Positions 12,410-59,854 of a DNA stretch of 64,000 bases are shown here, piece after piece. The notes beneath the pieces are model-generated. The model made no database searches and was not told where the DNA came from. It saw nothing but the letters and a program-made list of their open reading frames with translations. A program made the translations under genes and the position numbers. Location: contig NW_024704742.1 in the NCBI RefSeq assembly GCF_018977255.1, positions 124,498,001-124,562,000 on the forward strand, in the 5' to 3' direction. The stretch's first letter is position 1. Each line of letters begins with the position of its first letter. This DNA comes from Callorhinchus milii (lineage: Eukaryota).

Positions 12410-13690
12410 TAGGTCGAGCCTGCCCCACCATTCGATAAGATCATGGCTGATCTTCTGACCTGTAAAGACCTGCCCTATCTGATATCCCCTAATCCCTCTA
12501 TTTTTAAAAAATCTATCAGTCTCAGCCTTGAAAATGTTCAAGGACTGAACATGGGATAGTGAATTCCATAAATTCACTACCCTCTGAGTGAAGAAATGTT
12601 TCCTCAACTCTGTTCTAAAAGGCTGACCCTTAATTTTAAGACTGTGACCCCTGGTTATAGATTCTCCTACCAGGGGAAACAGTCCCTCAGTGTCTACTTT
12701 ATCCAGCCCTTTAAGAATCTTATATGTTTCAATAAGATCTCCCCCAATTCTTCTGTACTCTAGTGAATATAGCCCTAGTTTATTCAGCCTATCCTCAAAG
12801 GTCAGTCCCCTCATCCCAGGAACTAGCCTAGTGAATCTACTAAGGCAAGTATGTCCTTTTTTAAATAAGGAGACCAAAACTGCACACAATACTCTAGGTG
12901 CGGTCTCACTAAGGCCCTATACAGTTGCAGCAAGACTTCCCTACTCTTGTACTCTAAACCTTTTGCAATGAACGCTAACATGCCGTTTGCCTTCTTAGTT
13001 GCTTGCTGCATCTGCAAACTAACTTTCTGAGACTGGTGTAAAAGGACACCCAAATCCCTCTGAACACTAACACAATCTAATCTCTCCCCTCTAGAAAATA
13101 ATCTGTTTTTCTATTTTTGCTACCGAGGTGAATAAGTTCACACTTCCCCACATTAAATTCCATCTGCCCCTACTCGCCCACTCCCCGAGCCTATCTATAT
13201 CCCGTTGCAATCTTTTTGCATCATTCTCAGAGCTTACTCTCCCACCTAGTTTAGTGTCATCCGCGAATTTAGATACGTTACATTCAATCTCCTCATCTAG
13301 ATCGTTGATGTAAATTGTAAATAGCTGAGACCCAACCACTGATCCTTGTGGCACTCCATTAGTCACATCCTGCCAATTCGAGAATGACCCGTTTATCCCT
13401 ACTCTCTGTTTTCTACCTGTTAGCCACTCTTCAATCCATGCTAATATGTTCCCATTAATCCCGTGGGCCTTAACCTTGTGCAATAGCCTTTTGTGTGACA
13501 CTTTGTCAAATGCCTTCTTAAAATCTAAATATACTACATCTACTGGTTCCCCACTATCTAACCTGCTAGATACATCTTCAAAAACTCTAAAAGATTAGTT
13601 AAGCATGACTTTCCTTTTGTAAAGCCATATTGACTCTGCCTAATCTTGTTATGGTCTTCCAGGAATCTCATAACGACATCCTTAATCAAG
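12410..13690 (-). mobile_element. CR1 LINE, 5'-truncated, frameshifted reverse transcriptase
   Basis: HKRLLHKVKAHGI...GVPQGSVVGSQLFTIYINDLD...SKFADDTKLGG; LYRALVRPHLEYCVQFWSP; FFTQRVVNLWNSL. Confidence 0.95.
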
Positions 13691-29841: not shown

Positions 29842-31024
29842 CTGTAAAAGATAAAGGAAACATTTGAAAGCAAAGCCTTGGGATGTCCTCCTGACGTGAA
29901 AGATGCTATGAAAATGGAATTTGTTGTTGCTAGGAATAGTAATTATTTACTTTAACATGGTTAAAATTCATTCATTCCAGTAGCAACTAATTGCACATAA
30001 AAAGAAATAAGATTACAGAAATAATTCAAACCAAAAATTGCTTCATGCATCAATTACTGTGCATTGTGTACATTATAACTGTATTCAAATGTCATGAGGG
30101 CACTAAAAAAAATTAAAAAGTAAGTATTTATTCTTTTCCACTAGCTCTGACTTTAAACATTAAAAGTTGTCAATTCTGGTTTAAGTTGTCAATGGAAGCA
30201 TCAGCTTCATGTAGGAGTATACAAAATACCAGAAAGTGTTAAAATGCATTGTCCAAATTCAAGACAATGAACCAAATTCTTATCTCCTTATCCCTTTCTG
30301 ACCATCTGTGCTTCCTTTACATTAGCTAATGCAAACTACTAACACTGGATGAAACCACACTACAGGGTTGAGCTTCTAAACCATGCAGTTTGGGTTATTG
30401 AAACAAATTGAATTCTAATTCTAAAAGTATTGGGATAAGTCCGAGAGCCTTTGGACCATATTGAGCTTTTAATTGACATTTTACTGTTTGAAAGACTGGA
30501 TCGCAAATACTTGATTCGCAAAATCTGTCCTTCTCTTACTAAGTTTGCTCCAGAAGGATGCAATGGCGTAGGACTGTATTGGTCATTGATGCTGTTCATG
30601 CGTTAAAAAAAACTTCTTTAAACGTGTGGATCCGAAAAATTGAAAGGGTTGAACATAATTTTAAATATCTCATAATTGTCCAATGTCAGGTACAATCGAT
30701 TCCAACAGTGTCCTTTTTTTTGAGATCCCATAAAAAACATCAGAATTTGTTTTCATTTTTAAAAAAAGTCATTTAGGTGTGTGTGTGTGTGGTGGGGGGG
30801 GGGGGGGGGTGAATAAATCTCGCCATTAAATAAGAGCGGAATACATCGTTCGGCTCTCGATGCATTAAAAATAACTATTCGAAAATGCGAGTGTTTCCCA
30901 AGCGTTTGGTTTAATTGCAGAGGAGTTGCGGGTTGGCTGTGCAACACAGGACATCCCACATGCGTTCGTGTCTGCCTATAATGCTGTGCATTCTCCACTC
31001 TGTGAGGTCCTTGGGGGTACTCAC

Positions 31025-31252
31025 TTATACATGCCCCTTCGTAGGCTACTCCGATGGATCTGCCCAGCAGGCATGTGGCCCGTCTGAGATGGCAGGCACT
31101 GGCGTATGTGATCCCATCGTTGCCGCACAGATACTGCTCGGGACCGCTGGGCTCCGGGCAGATCCTCGGGTTACATGTCACACAGTAAGCACTGTTCGTC
31201 TGATCCACCACACACACCGAGCTGCCCGGACACAACACATCCCTGCAGGTCT
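31025..31252 (-). CDS. FST: Follistatin exon 4 (FS domain 2)
   Basis: cctcag|AGACC...ATAA|gtgagt; 228 nt, [26 protein letters not shown]...[18 protein letters not shown]. Confidence 0.97.
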
Positions 31253-31795
31253 CTGAGGGGCAAAGGCAATACAACACATCAGTATAAAAATTAGATATGC
31301 ACCTGCAGCAAGCAACCAAATGCAATATACTGCATATATATATATATACACACACACATACATACATCGATGTTCTATGGGAGGCATATATAATGGTTTC
31401 AGATAAGCATTCAGTAAAAAAAATATACATCTTCCACTTATATTGTTGCTCGGGTAGGAAAAGAGAATATTGTCAATCCAATCGGCGCGATTTCAATCCC
31501 AATCACTGATTTTGTTGCAAAAAAAAGAGAGAGAAAGATTTAACGCAACGTTTCATCAACCACGGACTGGTGTGGGAGGAAAAGTACAAACACAAATACT
31601 TTGGACTTGCTGTCTATCGGGGGAGTTGGAAAGAAAACGGTTCCATGGATTGAATGGTAAAATGAGGCTGAAATGCGCGCATTGCTGAGTGCTCCCACCC
31701 CCTCCCCTCTCCCACGAGAATTGAGCGTTACATGTGCAATCCCCCCTCACCCCCCACACCCCTCCCCTTAATTTCTATGCACTTGTTGCACGTAC

Positions 31796-32014
31796 TTTTG
31801 CATTTGCCTTGGTACTGGACTTCCAGCTCGGGATGGCCCTTGCATCTCGCCTTCAGAAGGGCGCACTCGTCCTTGTACGTTTTTCCATCAGTCCCACACA
31901 CTGAGCCCTTCCAAGTAACGTTGGAGCAGTCGGGTGCACAGACACACCGAGGCTTATTCTTCTTGTTCATCTTGCATCGTTTACCTGGACCGCAATCCAC
32001 GTTGTCACACGTTT
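31796..32014 (-). CDS. FST: Follistatin exon 3 (FS domain 1, heparin-binding)
   Basis: caacag|AAACG...AAAA|gtacgt; 219 nt, [32 protein letters not shown]...YQGKCK. Confidence 0.97.
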
Positions 32015-32415
32015 CTGTTGAAAAAAAAACCAAACAAAAAAATCCCCCCACGCGTTATCTTCAGCAAAATGCTAATTCTTCAACACAGCGACCAAGGTAT
32101 CCGACAGCTAACGCGTATCTTTCCGTTGCCTGGATTCAATTATTAAATATATCTACGCGTATAGTTATGTATCTTAAGATTTAGGGGGTGGTGGGGAAGC
32201 GCACAATCAATGGCTATCTTTATTGAGAGCCTCCACTGACTGCACCAGAAACGACCCGTGGCGAGAGAGGGAGAACTGAAAAGAAAAGGCTGCTGTATCA
32301 GAGTCGAGAGGCACATTTCACTCTCGTTGTGCAAAGACAGCGCAAATCTTGCGGGAGTCGAGAAACATAAAAGCCAGACGGACGGACGCAGTTCGTGCGC
32401 ACAGTGGTGGTGTAC

Positions 32416-32607
32416 CTTTGCACGGCATACACCCAGGAGCCCCGCCGTTGAAGATGATCCATCTGAACAGGGTGCTGGACGGCACATCGTCTTCTGTCCA
32501 CGCCGTGCCGAGCCTTCCGCTCTTACAGCACTCCTCCCGGCTGACCCGAGTCATGTAGAGGACTTGGCATTTGCCGTTTTTCGCTTGCTGTAACCAGCAG
32601 TTTCCAG
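32416..32607 (-). CDS. FST: Follistatin exon 2 (N-terminal TB domain)
   Basis: ttgcag|CTGGAAAC...AAAG|gtacac; 192 nt, (A)[17 protein letters not shown]...[16 protein letters not shown]...[12 protein letters not shown]. Confidence 0.97.
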
Positions 32608-34050
32608 CTGCAAAACACACACACACACACACACACACACCACACAGTGTCAGTCTCACTGCTCCAGATCGCAACACGTGCACTTCGCACTGACGCGACA
32701 GAGAGTCTTTTATTTCAACTCTTTTTTTTTCTTTGGGTCTCGGTTTGCAGAAACGGGCATCGGCTGCAAACGAGGGGGGGGGACAACGCTTCGCTTTACT
32801 TGTGCTGCGATTATTATTTATCACACCGTTCGAAGTGCGGTTGTCGGGTTTTGAGCAATGATTGCATTGCATTGCGTGTGGAAGTTAACTGGGCTCGGAT
32901 CTAGGACTGCAGAGCTCAGTCCTACCAAAAAAAAGGAGGGGGGGGAGGAAAAAATACGGCATTGATGCCAGAAAGGAAAGTGGACCCATTACAGTGAAAC
33001 CCAGAGCACAGCTTCGTGACTGGCGAGACACTCATCGGATGAGCACAACGTCTGGGAAAAATGACACTGCGGTTGACAGCGTCTGAGTTAAACGACATAA
33101 ACATCAGTTGTAATTATCTGGCAGGTACCATCCAATTGATGGTGCCATCCACTCACATGGGGGGGGGAGATCAGGAATAGAAACATTTGCTGTTTTTTTT
33201 TCTGCACCACTAATTCGTGGTTGAGATTCTTGATCTCTGCTGCCTCTCCTGGAGAGTCACACACAGCCCTCGTACACCAAATACCGAACGCCACAGACAG
33301 GACCCGGAGTTGCACACTTTTATTCAGTCTTCATAGCATTAAAGCAGAAGGCAATCGGGAACGACACACGTGCCTCTCTAATCATTTCCAACCGCACCAA
33401 ATAATCCCACCGGCTCCTGGACGGGGGTCGCTTGATTCGCGTGAAATCGCAACACGATTTACCTCCTCCAGTCCGACCGAACACCGATTCGTGTCGTGAG
33501 TCGATGGTCCACGAAGGTGATGGGACTTTCTAAGACACGATTCACCTACTGGAGGGTCTAACACCGGCTGTGAATGCTCACGGCCGCGATCGCGAACCAT
33601 TAACGCACTGAGAGCGAGTGCACCCACAACACACGCAGGACAGGTAACGCCAACACACTTTCACGCCCTCTGACCACATACTACAGACCGTCTGTGCCAT
33701 AAAGTTCTCGTGAATTTTTTTTTGGGGGGAGAGCACACCAACACGTGTGGCGGTATTCAAAATGCAACCGGACTGCATCGGACGGCCCGCAGACAACTTC
33801 CTCTGATCCCAAACGTGTTCATTTTTTTTTGGGGGGTGGGTGGGGGGTTACCACGGTTCGTCTCGGGGGATCGTTTGCAAATGTTCCCCCTCGTCCAAAG
33901 CGAGGATCCGAGAGGCGCTCGGGGGGGGGACGTGCACACATTCAACGTGGAGCGATGACTCTGAATCCAAATATACATCCACAATCCTTCTCCCTCCCCC
34001 CAACCCCCCACCCCACTCCCCCCCCCCCCCCCAAAAAAAAAAAAACTCAC

Positions 34051-40525: not shown

Positions 40526-41532
40526 TCATCTCAGAGGTGAGTTGGGTCTGCTGGACCGCAGGCTACCCAGCGATCTTTTTAAGGAGCTGTAAGACCTTTC
40601 GTGTTTCTTTTTGGCTGCCTTATAGCATTGACGCACTTGCCACTTCCTGAAAGCTTTCTGTATAGTCAGGGCAGCCTTGATCTCTTTGCGTATCATGAGA
40701 GTAGTCGTTGTCGTTCGCATTGTACTTCGAATTGGAAACAATTTCATTGCTTTAGTGAGGGTTTTCTCACTCAGCTTCTTCAAGGGCTCGGTCTCCACTA
40801 TATTACCAATCACCACAGAGCTGAGAGATTTGAGGACATCCAGGCAATGCAACTTGTGGCCGTCCACCAACGGGAAGTTGAGAGCAGCTATTTTGACTGC
40901 ATTGGGCTTTGGGATCTGCAAAGGATGCTTCAGCTCGTGTAAGAAGTCAGGCAGCTGCTCGTAGGTGATAAACTGTGTCGCGTTGGGATCAAAATTGCTC
41001 CAGACCTCATAAAACATGTCCACGTCTTCGTCGGTCACTCCGGAGATTTCCTGCTCTTGGGCTTCGTGGAAGTTTTCCAGAATCACCGCCACGTACATGT
41101 TGATGATGACTATGTTCGCGCACAGTATATACGATGTCATGTAGATGATGGCGACAAATGGACGCTGTTCCTTGGAGTGAACCATCACCTGCAGGACCTC
41201 ATTCCAGGCGGCGGCGGTGGTTAACCTGAACAGGAGCATCATACTGTTGCCGAAGGTTTCGAAATTGACGATGTCGTTTATCGGGGGTTCACGCGTTAGA
41301 TCGCGGAACAGATTCATTCCCAGGATGGCGTAAATGAACATAACAAGACCCAGCAGCAGCCCGATGTTGAAGAGCGCCGGGATGGAGATGACCAACGTGA
41401 AGAGGAGCTTTCGAATCCCCTTCAAGGACCTCACCAGCCTCAGTAAGCGGGCGAGCCGCACAATGCGGAACACCCGCAAAATAGTTGGGGAAACCGCTTG
41501 CTTTTTGGATGCAGTGGAGTCCAATAAAATTC
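40526..41532 (-). CDS. Nav2-type channel, terminal exon: DIV S4-S6, EF-hand-like C-terminal domain and IQ motif
   Basis: ccattag|GAATT...TGA; S4 RVFRIVRLARLLRLVRSLKGIRK, pore FRLTTAAAWNEVL, S6 INMYVAVILENF, FYEVWSNFDPNATQFI, IQ motif IQKAFRKW. Confidence 0.97.
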
Positions 41533-43606
41533 CTAATGGCACACGAAGAAAACGCAGAGTCAATACCGCACAGAGGCACAAGACTGACATTCAACGCCGC
41601 GGTTCCCCTGGATCTTATAAACGCCAATTTTTTTATTTTTTTTGGGGGGGGGGGTTTGGAAGGACGAATGAGCTGTGAATTATAGCTATTAATATTACGT
41701 GGTCCAGATGATCCACGTCCTGATCAATTCCAATACTATTCCAAGTCCGTCACTGAAACGGTCCATTTATATAACGTCCTCTGATGCAGTTCAGCGTTGC
41801 TCAATAAGATTGTTAAACATGTTATGTTTAATTGTATACTTCTAATCACATCATCACCTCTTGTGGCGAATGTTGCATTTTATGCAAGGTCCTTTTTTCC
41901 CCTTAAATTATTGCAAATAGCTACTAATTCCACCCCGATTTTGACAATGGAAAAATACTTTATCCCAATACATCATTCTTATGTCCATTGGAACATAGGT
42001 TGTTCCAGAACTTCCCTTCGGGAATGCAACTAATCCTTTTAATGGCATTGCATACGGCATTTGTGTTGATGAGTTTCTCTTCTCAGGATGAGAAAGTTGA
42101 TAGAATCCCAATTTTAAAACGATCCTCTTATTGAGCACGCCGAGCCTGTTTGGATGCAACATATATTGACCATTGTGTCCTGTTTAGGACATGATGGTTT
42201 ACCTGTTAGCTAACCGTGGTTGTTCAAAAGATCAGTCAGCATGTTTACATCCTTCAAGATTTCTCCACTAAGTCTATATTCATGAAGATTCACCATCTTG
42301 CACACAGATGTCCTTTATATAGAAATTCTGAAGAAATAATTCGCCTATGTTGACATTTAAGATGTGGGGAGCTACTCAAAAGCTTGGGAACGTTTAATAG
42401 GATCTTTGAAACACATCTTTATGATAATATTAATAATCCTTACATTAGATCTGGTGCCTTATCACGCCATTGAGATATTTCAAAGTGCTTCTCAGGATTT
42501 GCTGTATTTACAGGAGAATGCTGCAGCCAAATATTCTGTGCGAAGTAATGTTCCAACAAACAGTTATGAATTGCATGATCAGTATAAACTGAGGGATTGT
42601 TGGTTGGGACACCAGGAGAAACTCCCTCCTCATTTTGAATCATATACATCTTCAACATTCAAACGATGAAAGCTCATCAACTAGATCCTTAATTTTCTGT
42701 ATAATGATATCTTTCCATCAGTCAGATATTCCAAAGTTGCAGTGGTATCTTAACAGCCTCAGTTTTCAAGCTTCTTTAGCAAAATTCTAATAATTTCTCA
42801 TCGGTAGTTTTATTTCTAGTTCTATAAAACAGTACACAATGCTGACATATCTGGTCTTCAGCACAATTCAATTTTGTTACAGATGTGATTATTGCTTGTT
42901 AAAAATCCCACTGTTCTATATTAACTGTGGTGACTGAAGAGATTATCTTCTTCCACTTTGAATTTCATTAATTAATGACAGGCATAAGTATCAAACTGTT
43001 CCATTGTTTTACAGAGATTACTGGTGACTGCTGTGATAATAACAGGAATCCTGTTGGTGCTGAGTACACCTTAGACTAAAATAATCAGGAGTTCTTTGTG
43101 GTTTAGGTTTACCATTGTCTTTATGGAGTCTTTAGTGAGTGGTAACTACATTTGAGCAACAATAGTGATAGATTAGTCTAGCAGTTGGAGTTCGTTTAGC
43201 AACAATTAATCACCAATTATCATGCCACCGGAAGTCTGATATTCCTCAGGGTGTAGTCTTAAAACCATTACCAAAAATTTAGGATTGTGCAGTTTTAGAA
43301 AAGTCTTAAATTCAATCCCAATTTTGAAAGTGGTTTCCAAATTCAAATTGAATTTAAACATTTTGCAAAATTCTGTATGATCTCTTCATTTTAGCAAAAT
43401 GCAGGAGCACAAAAAGTGATTTTCTTCATCAAAAATCAATGCTCTCTATTACTGTATTAACAGTAAGGAAGAAGTCTGTTTTGTACTGGAGATACAAATT
43501 GACTTCTTACCTTGTGTTGCAAAGACACTCCTTTGGAGTCTTTAGGAAGAGCCCATGGGTCTGTATATTCTGCTTGCTTTTTCAGAAGAGGAAGATATCT
43601 GCTTGT

Positions 43607-43940
43607 GGAGTCCTGTAGCTCAGTGGTTAGAGCACTCGCTTTGCAAGAGAGAGACCTGAGTTCAATTCCAGGCAGGGCGAAACCTTGGGCAAGTTTCCTT
43701 ACTCCACACGCCTAATAATAATCCCTCCAAAAAAAAAAATAATAATAATAAATTGGTCATTTTCAATCTACGACTGTTTGTGGGACATTGCTGTGCACAA
43801 TTGGCTGCCGCGTTCGCCCACAAATATACAGTCAATTCACTTTACAGTGTGTTCTGTGAAGCGCTTTGGGACGTCCTCCCGACGTGAAAAGCGCCATATC
43901 AAATGCAAGGATTATTATTATTATTATTATTATTATTATT
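43607..43940 (+). mobile_element. tRNA-derived SINE (short form, young)
   Basis: Full-length, intact A/B boxes, (tta)n tail. Confidence 0.92.
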
Positions 43941-45427
43941 GTCGCTAGCCTGGCACAGTGGTAGCCCTCTCGCTTCTGAGTCAGAAGACTATGGGATTAA
44001 GCCCCACATTGAGCCTCTAAACTGATATCTCCCACCTCCACAACATTGCCAGCTCTGCTACTGTCTCACACCACAGGCTGCCGAGACCTTCATACACGCA
44101 TTCATAATATCCAGGCTCGACTACACAAACTCCCTGCTTGTCGGCCTCCCCAACTCCTCCCTCCATAGGTTGCAGATCATCCAGAACTCTGCAGCCTGTA
44201 TCCTCTCCCGCACCGGGCTCCGCGACCCTATCACGCCCATCCTCAAGGATTATTATTATTATCCCTTTAAGGTGAATAAAGGAGAACAGCTCCAACCCCT
44301 TTAAATCCAATTGTCGTCTAGTTTGTTGTTAAAAGGGTGATTGTCTGGGCTAGGAATAATCTATTTAAACAGAGTGTACAGAAAAGAAATAAGTAAATTC
44401 AAGTTTTTTTCTTTTGGAAGGTGTGATTCATCATTTAAATTGAAGTCACATTTCCACAGATACACAAATACTCAAATAATTTCCTCCAAATTAAAACCAC
44501 AGGTATCATAATATAATATATTTTCCACTTTGAATTGGCCTTTGAATTAATAATCCCAATAGATTCAATATTCCAAGAATAGCAAAATTCGATGTTTTTT
44601 TCATAAATATCTGTGCCTACTTGTGAAAGAACATTTCACTCACAAAACAGTCAATTCACTTTACCGTATACTGTGAGAAATTCTTTGAGACATTTTGAAG
44701 ACATGATAAGGCATTATATCAAATGCAAGAATTATTATTAATATATAACGAAAGCTGATCTAACAGAAAATAATATGACATGCACATTACAGCAGGTGTG
44801 TCTGATGATATCACAGAAATGTATACATTTTCAGAACAGAAAGACACCATTCAGCCCATTGTTTCTGTGTTATGCTTCTCGTTGTCCTTGTAAATCACAA
44901 TGAAACACTGCAGTTACAATTAGGGAATATGTCTAATGACTAATGACTAAGTTATTTGATATTTTTGTAAAAATAATTTTAAAAAAGCTACATAAAAAAA
45001 TTAATAGTTATAAAAAGCAAACAAACCCCTATATTCTTTATATGTTTGAGCAGAAAGATACAACTCCATACTGGGTTCATGAATGGATCTATTTTGTTCC
45101 TTGGTTGACTCAGCTGACATGATTTCAGGGATATTCCAGTGGGAACTGGAATTCTTCCCACTCAGCTCCTGTTAACCCTACAAGCCAATATTTTAATGGA
45201 TAGGGTGGTCATAGCTGGACAAGCAGTAGGAAGCCTGCCAGAAAAGTGCTTTCAATAGCAAGTTGTGAGGCTTTAACTGGTTACTCCAGCAGTACTCCCA
45301 ATGCACACACTATGGGATCATATAGCCTTGGCTATTGCACTTTGAAAAAATCTTCCCTTTTAAGAAAAAATCCTCCCCTCACCTCCTTTACCAAAGAAAA
45401 AAATATAACAGTAAACATATGAGTTAC

Positions 45428-45698
45428 CTGCAATGGAAAGAATAACAACTATAAAATCAAAGATATTCCAGGCTTGAGTGAAGTAGTATAGACGTTGGCC
45501 TGAAAGTTTTACAACTGCTTCAAGTGTGAATAAGGCTGTGAAGATAATGTTGAACCAATTTAAAACAGTGGCAAATGTTTTTGTCTGCCCATAATGATCG
45601 CATGCCATTACCAACACGTTCAAGGTTATCAGGCCAATGGTGCAAGGCTCAAAACCTTTATGGCTCACTAGCTTGTAGAACTGCAAAGATATTTTATT
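45428..45698 (-). CDS. Nav2-type channel, exon encoding DIV S1-S3
   Basis: caacag|AATAAA...ATTGCAG|gtaact; 271 nt, ...FTALFTLEAVVKLSGQRLYYFTQAWNIFDFIVVILSIA; WNIFDF motif; size equals the equivalent Nav1 exon. Confidence 0.95.
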
Positions 45699-46259: not shown

Positions 46260-46810
46260 TCATAGAATTATAGAATTATACAGCACAGAAGGAGACCATT
46301 CGGCCCATCATGTCTGTGCCGGTTCTTTGAAAGAGCTATCCAAATTAATCCCACTCCCCGCTCTCTCCCCATAGCCTTGCAAATTTGTCCTCCCCAAATA
46401 TCGTGCAGTCCTGTAGCTCAGTGGTTAGAGCACTCGCTTTGCAAGCGAGAGACCTGAGTTCAATTCCAGGCAGGGCGAAACCTTGGGCAAGTTTCCTTAC
46501 TCCACACGCCTAATAATAATCCCTCCAAAAAAAATAAATAAATAATAATAAATTGGTCATTTTCAATCTACGACTGTTTGTGGGACATTGCTGTGCACAA
46601 TTGGCTGCCGCGTTCGCCCACAAATATACAGTCAATTCACTTTACAGTGTGTTCTGTGAAGCACTTTGGGACGTCCTCCCGACGTGAAAAGCGCTATATC
46701 AAATGCAAGGACTAAGGACAACTAGGACTATCTCTCTTGAGCATTGTTGTTGAATCTGCTTTCACCACACTGGCAGTGCATTCCAGATCCGAACAACTTG
46801 CTGTGTGAAA
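46260..46810. mobile_element. Young SINE (+, 46407-46711) nested in a CR1 3' end (-)
   Basis: CR1 tail catagaattatagaatt...ccattcggccc upstream, resuming as gcattccagatccgaacaacttgctgtgtgaaaa after the SINE. Confidence 0.85.
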
Positions 46811-52318: not shown

Positions 52319-52432
52319 CTTAGGAGCGGGAATTTTCTTAGTTGGTTTAGCTTGAGAAAGACGTTTGAACGTGCTATAAAATCTTCTCTGATCTTCAGTG
52401 AGAAGCGTGACTAACGCACCTTCTTTTCGTGA
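52319..52432 (-). CDS. Nav2-type channel, exon encoding the DIII-DIV linker (inactivation gate region)
   Basis: tgttgcag|TCACGA...CCTAAG|gtatgc; 114 nt, SRKEGALVTLLTEDQRRFYSTFKRLSQAKPTKKIPAPK, alignable to Nav1 [33 protein letters not shown]. Confidence 0.93.
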
Positions 52433-53129: not shown

Positions 53130-54195
53130 ACAGCCTGACTCAGGTGGTAGCACTCCCACCTCTGGGTCATAAGGTTGTGAGTTCAAGCCCCATTATGGGA
53201 CTTTGGGCTCATATAGTCTAGGTTAGGGTGACCATACAATGAAGTATTGGAGAAGCCCTGCATATTGGAGGTGACATCCTTCAGATGAGATGCTAAACTG
53301 AGTTCCCATCTGCCCATTCAGGTGCATGGTAAAGATCCCATAGCACTGTTTTCAAACATAAGTTAGTTTCTCCCAGTGTCTTTGCCAATAATTCTCCAGA
53401 TAAAATTGGCGTTCACTTTGTGGCTGTCTGTGGGCAAATTGGCTGCTGTGTTCACCTCCAAAATAGTCACTAGATTTTACAGTAAGTCCTGTAAAGCACT
53501 TTGAGACATTCTCCTAACATGGAAGCTCAGTGGTTAGAGCACTCGCTTTGCAAGTGAGAGACCTGAGTTCAATTCCAGGCAGAGGGCGAAACCTTGGGCA
53601 AGTTTCCTTACTCCACACAGAGCCTAATAATAATCCCTCCAAAAAACAAAACAATAATAAATTGGTCATTTTCAATCTACGACTGTTTGTGGGACATTGC
53701 TGTGTGCAATTGGCTGACGTGTTCGCCCACAAATATAGTCAATTCACTTTACAGTGTGTTCTGTGAAGCACTTTGGGACGTCCTCCCGACGTGAAAAGCG
53801 CTATATCAAATGCAAGGATTATTATTAATATTAATGATAATATGTCTGCTCAACATCACAGGATTTACTATAAAGTGTATTGATAGCGTATTTGTGGCTG
53901 AAAGCGCCAACCAATTTGCATATAATGTCCCATAAAAAGCCATGGAATGAATGACCAATTTTACCTGGGGAATTGTTAGCCAAGACACAGGAGAAACTCC
54001 CTTCCTTCTCTTCTAGAATAGAACCATGGATCTTTAATGCCCACTTTAACAAGCAGAAGGGGCCTTGGTTTAACCTTTCATCCAAAGGATGGCATCCCTG
54101 ACAATGCAGAGCACATCCAGCACTATGTTGTAGTCTGTGAGCTCAAAGTCCCAATGTGGAGCTTGAACCCACAACGTCTGACTGGAAGGTGAGAA
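53130..54195. mobile_element. SINE cluster: old Deu-SINE (+, 53130-53515), young SINE (+, 53524-53829), old Deu-SINE (-, 53850-54195)
   Basis: tggtagcactcccacctctgggtcataaggttgtgagttcaagccc...aaagatccca on +; its reverse complement (ccatggatcttta...gcttgaacccacaac) at the right. Confidence 0.8.
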
Positions 54196-54880: not shown

Positions 54881-55018
54881 CCTTTTATGCATGGTGTTGA
54901 AATTGTCAATAATTATACCAATGAAAAGATTCAGAGTGAAAAATGTTCCAATGACTATAAAAGCAACAAAGTAGAAGAGACTATAAGGATTTGCTCCCAT
55001 TTCAGGCTGAAAGTCGAT
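54881..55018 (-). CDS. Nav2-type channel, exon encoding DIII S6
   Basis: ttggcag|ATCGAC...AAAAGG|gtgagt; 138 nt, [46 protein letters not shown] (Nav motif [15 protein letters not shown]); absent from the ORF track. Confidence 0.95.
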
Positions 55019-56645: not shown

Positions 56646-56699
56646 CCCTCGGGTATCAGCAGCATTGGCCATAATTTCCAACCAGCCTTCAAATGTCGC
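56646..56699 (-). CDS. Nav2-type channel, 54-nt exon with the DIII selectivity filter (ATFEGWLEIMANAADTRG)
   Basis: ttacag|GCGACATTTGAAGGCTGG...CGAGGG|gtagg; same size and phase as the Nav1 ATFKGWMDIMYAAVDSR exon; in frame with both neighbouring exons; absent from the ORF track. Confidence 0.95.
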
Positions 56700-59581: not shown

Positions 59582-59854
59582 CACCTGCAGAAGAGCCATG
59601 TAAGCAGTCAATATGTTATCAAAATTAATCTCGGAGTTGACCCATTGGTATCCAATATCCTTATATGCATCACAATCAGATCGATTATTTATTATAGTAA
59701 TGGGAAGGCGTTCATCATTTTCATCCACACATCGAAAAAACATTCCACCAAATATCTGAACACCAACAATGCCAAATATCAGCCAGAATACGAGACACAC
59801 TAACATGACATTAGAAATGGATGGGATCGAAGCAACCAAAGCATTAACAACAAG
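59582..59854 (-). CDS. Nav2-type voltage-gated cation channel alpha subunit, exon encoding DIII S4-S5 linker, S5 and pore loop P1
   Basis: ttacag|CTTGTT...CAGGTG|gtaagt; 273 nt, LVVNALVASIPSISNVMLVCLVFWLIFGIVGVQIFGG...NFDNILTAYMALLQV, matching the Nav DIII pattern VVNAL..IPSI.NVLLVCLIFWLIF...NFDN...YL.LLQV. Confidence 0.95.

Follow-up and report, generated by a model that had tools for sequence, protein, structure and literature searches.

What becomes of a sodium-channel latch that has lost its phenylalanine? The latch Phe is among the most fixed residues of ion channels, and was found in 264 of the 266 Nav proteins set beside vertebrate Nav2 here (a partly redundant collection that includes many bird isoforms). 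In a 64,000-nucleotide stretch of the elephant shark (Callorhinchus milii) genome, referred to below as the window, the exon encoding the linker between domains III and IV (DIII and DIV) carries TLL at the position of the IFM motif of Nav1 channels. An original prediction made from this DNA held that loss of the central aromatic residue would make inactivation slow or incomplete and leave a sustained current. Both the gene and the latch are known; the Leu or Val variant of the latch is real and extends across the lineage. In the elephant shark it probably has only a mild effect, and to that extent the finding is less surprising.

Together, six AG/GT-bounded exons cover the coding sequence between the DIII S4-S5 linker and the stop codon; they read as a single open frame, identical to residues 921-1538 of the database model P0007 (Table 1). 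The translation of the last of them is 100% identical to C. milii sodium-channel database models, and its C-terminal domain gives a weak IQ match. The linker exon is flanked by a polypyrimidine-CAG acceptor and a GTATGC donor and translates as SRKEGALVTLLTEDQRRFYSTFKRLSQAKPTKKIPAPK. HMMER aligned its TLLT to I1485-F1486-M1487-T1488 of human Nav1.5 (numbering counted along chain 8vyj_A), with a 3-residue gap upstream. In this register Leu-Leu-Thr-Glu-Asp-Gln supplies the hydrophobic centre, the x-Thr and the linker helix of a latch, and the central residue is Leu rather than the aromatic Phe.

Table 1. Exons of the C. milii Nav2 gene and latch codons located in the window
Feature	Position	Strand	Evidence
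DIII S4-S5 linker, S5 and turret exon (273 nt); first Nav2 exon located within the window	59582..59854	-	tblastn with P0007; AG/GT, open frame; X1 record 7
DIII pore loop ATFEGW exon, Glu for Nav1 Lys (54 nt)	56646..56699	-	tblastn; splice bounds and frame
DIII S6 exon (138 nt), GTGAGT donor	54881..55018	-	splice bounds; joined to linker exon, X1 record 6
Domain III-IV linker exon (114 nt, 38 codons, phase 0/0)	52319..52432	-	AG/GT bounds; X1 contig
TLL codons (ACG CTT CTC), counterpart of IFM	52400..52408	-	register against human Nav1.5
Thr codon after TLL	52397-52399	-	same register against human Nav1.5
DIV S1-S3 exon (271 nt)	45428..45698	-	homology; splice bounds
Last coding exon: DIV S4, S4-S5, S5 (latch pocket), TTAAAW, S6, C-terminal domain, stop	40526..41532	-	Pfam Ion_trans 2e-39

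None of the sequencing runs listed as matching the window is recorded as RNA. Four runs were compared: X1, which is RNA by the tool's guess only, yields exon-joining contigs, X2 yields uninterrupted genomic stretches, and for X6 and X8 the listed pieces are short, lie on repeats and are uninformative on expression. Letters 1-114 of one X1 contig match the linker exon and letters 115-252 match the DIII S6 exon upstream (54881-55018), with 0 mismatches. Since this contig crosses the junction between the two exactly, the acceptor of the linker exon is used in a spliced product, and both this contig and the HMMER register bear out the reading of TLL in place of IFM. Another X1 contig (record 4) extends 68 bases beyond the donor of the DIV S1-S3 exon into the intron (45360-45427), as either unspliced RNA or intron retention. 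Many of the models P0001-P0010 and several shark models, named SCN4A, SCN9A or after other Nav1 genes, contain RVKGALV and are two residues short; we rejected these gene models because the X1 contig supports SRKEGALV. An alternative linker exon containing Phe had been named as an observation that would count against the original prediction. A tblastn search with 57 distinct linkers detected neither a Phe-bearing nor any second linker exon in the window: 56 matches fell on the exon of Table 1 (best E 7e-25) and the next place reached only E 0.07.

The gene is the already known vertebrate Nav2 (Zakon et al. 2017, as cited in PMC6259924). Its selectivity filter is DEEA, the Nav2 type, with the DIII and DIV residues taken from the window (Glu in ATFEGW; TTAAAW) and the others from C. 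milii models that match the window exactly in their C-terminal part: DI Asp from P0007 and DII Glu from P0003, which has the DII pore loop that P0007 lacks. Human Nav1.5 has Lys at the DIII position, so the filter is not the DEKA of Nav1, and TLL is not the IFM or MFM of a Nav1 latch. In a quick tree without an outgroup, which kept 34 of 48 rows (14 omitted), a branch with SH-aLRT 100 sets off 14 vertebrate Nav2 proteins, the C. milii protein groups with the lamprey and coelacanth proteins in one clade (SH-aLRT 100), and the 7 Nav1 rows stand apart (SH-aLRT 100). The midpoint root of this outgroup-free tree, which includes invertebrate Nav2, falls on the long vertebrate Nav2 stem (0.65 changes per column), and long branches meet in the tree. 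Nav1 identity was rejected on the tree position outside Nav1 and on the Glu in the DIII filter; the names given in databases ('type 4', 'type 9 alpha-like' and the like) mislead. In clade and DEEA filter the C. milii gene is identical in kind to the Nav2 of lamprey and coelacanth. The available part of a 2018 review (PMC6259924), citing Zakon et al. 2017, describes single Nav2 genes in ghostshark, coelacanth and lampreys and their non-neural expression. Ca2+ permeability and slow gating are given as traits of the Nav2 family (available parts of PMC6259924 and PMC10983803), and by family analogy both are predicted for C. milii Nav2.

Other features of the window were recorded alongside the channel. 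Follistatin exons (FST_N, FOLN and Kazal domains) lie at 30762-32884 on the same minus strand, about 8 kb downstream of Nav2, and this adjacency is a usable synteny marker for tracing Nav2 loss. A reverse-transcriptase fragment (RVT_1) occupies 13094-13594 (minus strand), and copies of an interspersed repeat of about 300 bases, 94-98% alike, occur at 43605-43926, 46403-46711 and 53524-53833.

To follow the latch beyond the elephant shark, we fetched 318 proteins, 306 with a parsable latch and 12 without; word-limited homology searches placed Nav2 in at least 24 vertebrate species, and the gene may have gone undetected in gar, lungfish, frogs or amniotes. Aligning the linker across these orthologues, the check proposed with the original prediction, revealed that Phe is missing in 38 of 40 vertebrate Nav2 models and in 22 of 24 species. 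The centre of the latch in these 38 models is Leu or Val, hydrophobic throughout. The motif is TLL in C. milii (10/10 models), TVL followed by Thr in 10 of 12 elasmobranch (shark and ray) species (P0011-P0022), ILL in the coelacanth, MLL in bichirs, sturgeons, paddlefish and two salamanders, and ALL in three lampreys. Phe stands in two of the 12 elasmobranch models, as IFL in Rhinoraja and NFL in Scyliorhinus; the residues before these two latches are unrelated to each other and to every orthologue, which makes both probable homology-driven mis-predictions. The protein comparison and PMC10983803 agree that insect Nav2 has MFL. The claim that this DEEA channel lacks the Phe that insect Nav2 keeps is therefore upheld. 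Leu at the third latch position is present in 15 of 15 invertebrate Nav2 rows.

The original prediction had also remarked on three codons beyond the Nav1 linker exon, which is 105 nt long. The greater length stands, with 16 residues separating the latch centre from the DIII-S6 Phe in C. milii and 13 in alligator Nav1.5, but we rejected it as a novelty of the C. milii gene: amphioxus, starfish and sea-anemone Nav2 also have 16 residues, and insect and nemertean Nav2 have 15. Because amphioxus, starfish and anemone share the C. milii spacing, the three additional codons are likely to be ancestral or old. For the latch itself, the simplest history that we infer from the distribution of motifs is a single Phe-to-Leu change in the ancestor of vertebrate Nav2, which would have been followed by the gain of a first-position Thr in cartilaginous fishes and by Leu to Val in sharks and rays.

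The two exceptions among the 266 comparison proteins, P0259 (Leptotrombidium mite) and P0209, are Nav1-type (ATFKGW) with MLM for MFM and are, judged by these motifs, independent natural Phe-to-Leu changes. The searches also returned Nav2 orthologues from two salamanders, P0041 (Lissotriton) and P0042 (Ambystoma), both as partial models, and from non-teleost ray-finned fishes (bichirs, sturgeons and paddlefish; P0024-P0035). The 2018 review, in its available part, describes ray-finned fishes and tetrapods as being without Nav2 (PMC6259924), and our literature search found no paper on Nav2 of salamanders or non-teleost ray-finned fishes. In P0042, about 260 unrelated residues interrupt the linker ahead of the latch, and extra Pfam domains (PF13837 and PF13873) are also present in this protein; the insert is probably a transposon-derived false exon.

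A degenerating motif was considered and rejected. The 12-residue latch segment EGALVTLLTEDQ is 86% identical over 7 vertebrate lineages, at the 90th percentile of 545 such alignment windows (median 69%), so that few parts of vertebrate Nav2 are better conserved; the 12 residues after it are 50% identical. We then scored, over 24 vertebrate Nav2 rows, the pocket and anchor residues named in the available parts of papers on the Nav1 latch. The F1473 equivalent is kept in 22 of the 22 rows that have the segment, the Ala, Asn and Ile of DIV PALFNIG in 24/24 and the Gly after them in 22/24, and the A1326 equivalent in 22/24; behind the latch, the T1488 equivalent is Thr or Ser and the Q1491 equivalent is kept, each in 24/24. 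As read from the alignment, the receptor pocket (DIII S4-S5, DIII S6, DIV S4-S5, S5 and S6) retains its core, and three neighbouring sites near the pocket or gate are changed in 24/24 rows, with Ser at the A1330 equivalent, LFT or LYT for LFA, and NMYV for NMYI.

The linker has been remodelled. The acidic residue before the latch has become Val, Met or Ile in 23/24 rows, giving a longer hydrophobic run. Among 205 columns at least 90% fixed across 15 invertebrate Nav2 and 8 Nav1 rows, 19 are altered in vertebrate Nav2 (25 rows for this count, including one mis-cut sturgeon row), the linker contributing 6 of its 16 such columns and the remaining regions 13 of 189 (Fisher p=0.0013, although the columns are not independent). 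The changes in linker and pocket may either compensate for Leu or loosen the gate. Two further sites drew attention. The local-anaesthetic-binding Phe of Nav1 DIV S6 is Asn in C. milii (ILCANIVIINMY, in the last coding exon), and over the 24 vertebrate Nav2 rows this residue is Asn in 12, Phe in 8 and Tyr in 4; the Asn predicts an altered drug sensitivity. Outside the window, DI S4 reads GLSALRAFRALK in 7/7 matching vertebrate Nav2 rows (P0007, P0011-P0014, P0036 and P0038), one Arg less than in amphioxus Nav2 and the Nav1 rows, which have RTFRVLRALK.

Known channels offer several points of comparison. Insect Nav2 (DSC1, BSC1, honeybee CaV4) has in common with vertebrate Nav2 the DEEA filter, Leu at the third latch position, a spacer longer than that of Nav1 and non-Met DIV S4-S5 residues, but keeps both Phe (MFL) and the acidic residue before the latch, which are replaced in nearly all vertebrate Nav2. 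The IFM-T latch of Nav1 shares its register and largely its pocket with C. milii Nav2; the two differ in the DIII filter (Lys versus Glu) and in the spacer (13 versus 16 residues). Nav1.4b1 of apteronotid electric fishes (LFL/HLFL) is likewise a natural change in an otherwise fixed latch. It keeps the Phe that vertebrate Nav2 replaces, and owes its persistent current to the DIV S4-S5 receptor (PMC5870949, available part); the Ile-Gly facing the latch Phe is kept in 22/24 vertebrate Nav2 rows, unlike the receptor change of Nav1.4b1.

Published mutants bear directly on the argument from the lost aromatic residue. Kellenberger et al. reported 14 substitutions at F1489 of rat Nav1.2 (PMC2217064), among which F1489L was the mildest of their Table I, with a sustained current of 3±1% versus 2±1% in the wild type; its recovery (14.3 versus 17.7 ms) and its inactivation midpoint were not marked as significantly different. 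The authors concluded that hydrophobicity outweighs aromaticity at F1489, and F1489V left a sustained current of 45±3%. The aromatic-loss argument thus fails for Leu, because F1489L is nearly wild type in rat Nav1.2. Nor is slow inactivation diagnostic of Phe loss, because honeybee CaV4, in the available part of PMC10983803, inactivates over 100-1000 ms despite its Phe; replacing its MFL with AAA abolishes inactivation, and its C-terminus also influences the process. The third-position Leu is tolerated, since Nav1.5 with LFL in place of IFM showed no persistent current (PMC5870949, available part).

The remaining literature leaves part of the original expectation standing, in that F1486L, I1461T and the remodelled linker all point towards slow or incomplete inactivation. 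The sources, in their available parts, list F1486L and M1487L as increasing the late current of Nav1.5 (PMC9735811, 10.1101/2021.02.06.430010) and give the Nav1.7 pain mutation I1461T a persistent current of 14.4% versus 2.5% at 15 C (10.1101/2022.12.19.521077); PMC3529486 merely lists the F1486L variant. Each TLL residue consequently has a Nav1 single-mutant counterpart (Nav1.2 F1489L; Nav1.5 F1486L and M1487L; Nav1.7 I1461T). According to the review (PMC6259924, available part), Nav2 lacks IFM and its surroundings, a lack that it connects with slower inactivation. We found no electrophysiological recording in the literature on vertebrate Nav2 and no description there of the Leu/Val latch or its lineage pattern, although Zakon et al. 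2017 may show the linker; the available parts of PMC12021243, PMC8192821 and PMC3809514 contain nothing further on either subject.

Our best explanation, held with slightly better than even confidence, is that the latch of C. milii Nav2 works, somewhat weakened, on a slow channel. Leu would serve as the wedge, docking into the largely conserved pocket once the DIII and DIV sensors have moved, and its docking would close a slow, Ca2+-permeable, depolarisation-opened channel mostly to completion. The TLL current would decay over tens to hundreds of milliseconds to a modest sustained fraction, due more to Thr and the remodelled linker than to the missing aromatic ring. We favour a working latch because the latch segment and pocket are conserved with a centre that stays hydrophobic (38/40), because the homologous MFL is a working latch in honeybee CaV4, and because two natural Nav1-type proteins also have a Leu centre (MLM). 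As no recording of a vertebrate Nav2 was found, function is carried over from other channels. What may count against a working latch is that TLL joins three changes, each of which has a single-mutant counterpart only. Sharks and rays tolerate Val, which in Nav1.2 leaves 45% sustained current, a hint that selection may be preserving something other than tight closure; their TVL is predicted to be a stronger candidate for a leaky channel than TLL of C. milii.

The original reading, moved from the missing aromatic ring to several additive changes, becomes one in which Thr, Leu and the remodelled linker together destabilise inactivation and leave a large sustained Ca2+/Na+ current, extreme in TVL. 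We regard this as possible though somewhat unlikely. The persistent current of I1461T, worse in the cold, and the late current of F1486L in Nav1.5 (available parts of the sources above) speak for it, as do the strong effect of F1489V set beside TVL in 10 of 12 elasmobranch species, the enrichment of the linker in vertebrate-specific changes (6/16 versus 13/189), and a non-neural expression for which fast closing is perhaps unneeded (PMC6259924, citing Zakon 2017). It is countered by the nearly wild-type F1489L and by the strong conservation of motif and pocket, and its Thr argument applies to cartilaginous fishes only, since bichirs, sturgeons and salamanders have Met at the first position, as insect Nav2 does. 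A leaky channel appears likelier in the TVL orthologues than in C. milii.

An improbable alternative is that the segment no longer latches the pore and is kept for packing against the C-terminal domain or for calmodulin binding, with inactivation taking another route. The hydrophobic replacement of the acidic residue in 23/24 rows would fit such a role, as would the part of the CaV4 C-terminus in shaping inactivation (PMC10983803) and the C-terminal domain holding the linker in one solved state (10.1101/2021.02.06.430010), both from the available parts of these sources. Against this stand the conserved pocket residues, an intact Thr-x-x-Gln anchor and a 16-residue spacing from DIII S6 that matches the Phe-bearing Nav2 of amphioxus, starfish and anemone. 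Most improbable of all is that TLL reflects faulty annotation or a minority form, the main transcript having a Phe linker. Rhinoraja and Scyliorhinus do have Phe in their models (2/12), and the splice sites chosen differ in several C. milii models (RVKGALV), yet TLL is in all 10; the spliced X1 contig contains TLL with exact bounds, the window is without a second linker exon, and the upstream residues of the two Phe models look like mis-prediction.

Vertebrate Nav2 provides a natural series at the Phe site, Leu and then Val, with the pocket mostly unchanged. We tentatively raise, as rather unlikely, a stepwise loosening, in which Leu at the vertebrate root, Thr in cartilaginous fishes and Val in sharks and rays would successively favour a sustained, cold-enhanced, non-neural Ca2+ influx. 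If this were true, the normal latch of sharks and rays would be one that disables sodium channels in mammals, and, among tetrapods, Nav2 would be retained by salamanders. The TLL and TVL channels bear on whether the latch needs an aromatic ring, and vertebrate Nav2 more generally bears on whether changes in the pocket compensate for substitutions that cause human pain or arrhythmia disorders, and on the type of current carried by a non-neural vertebrate channel.
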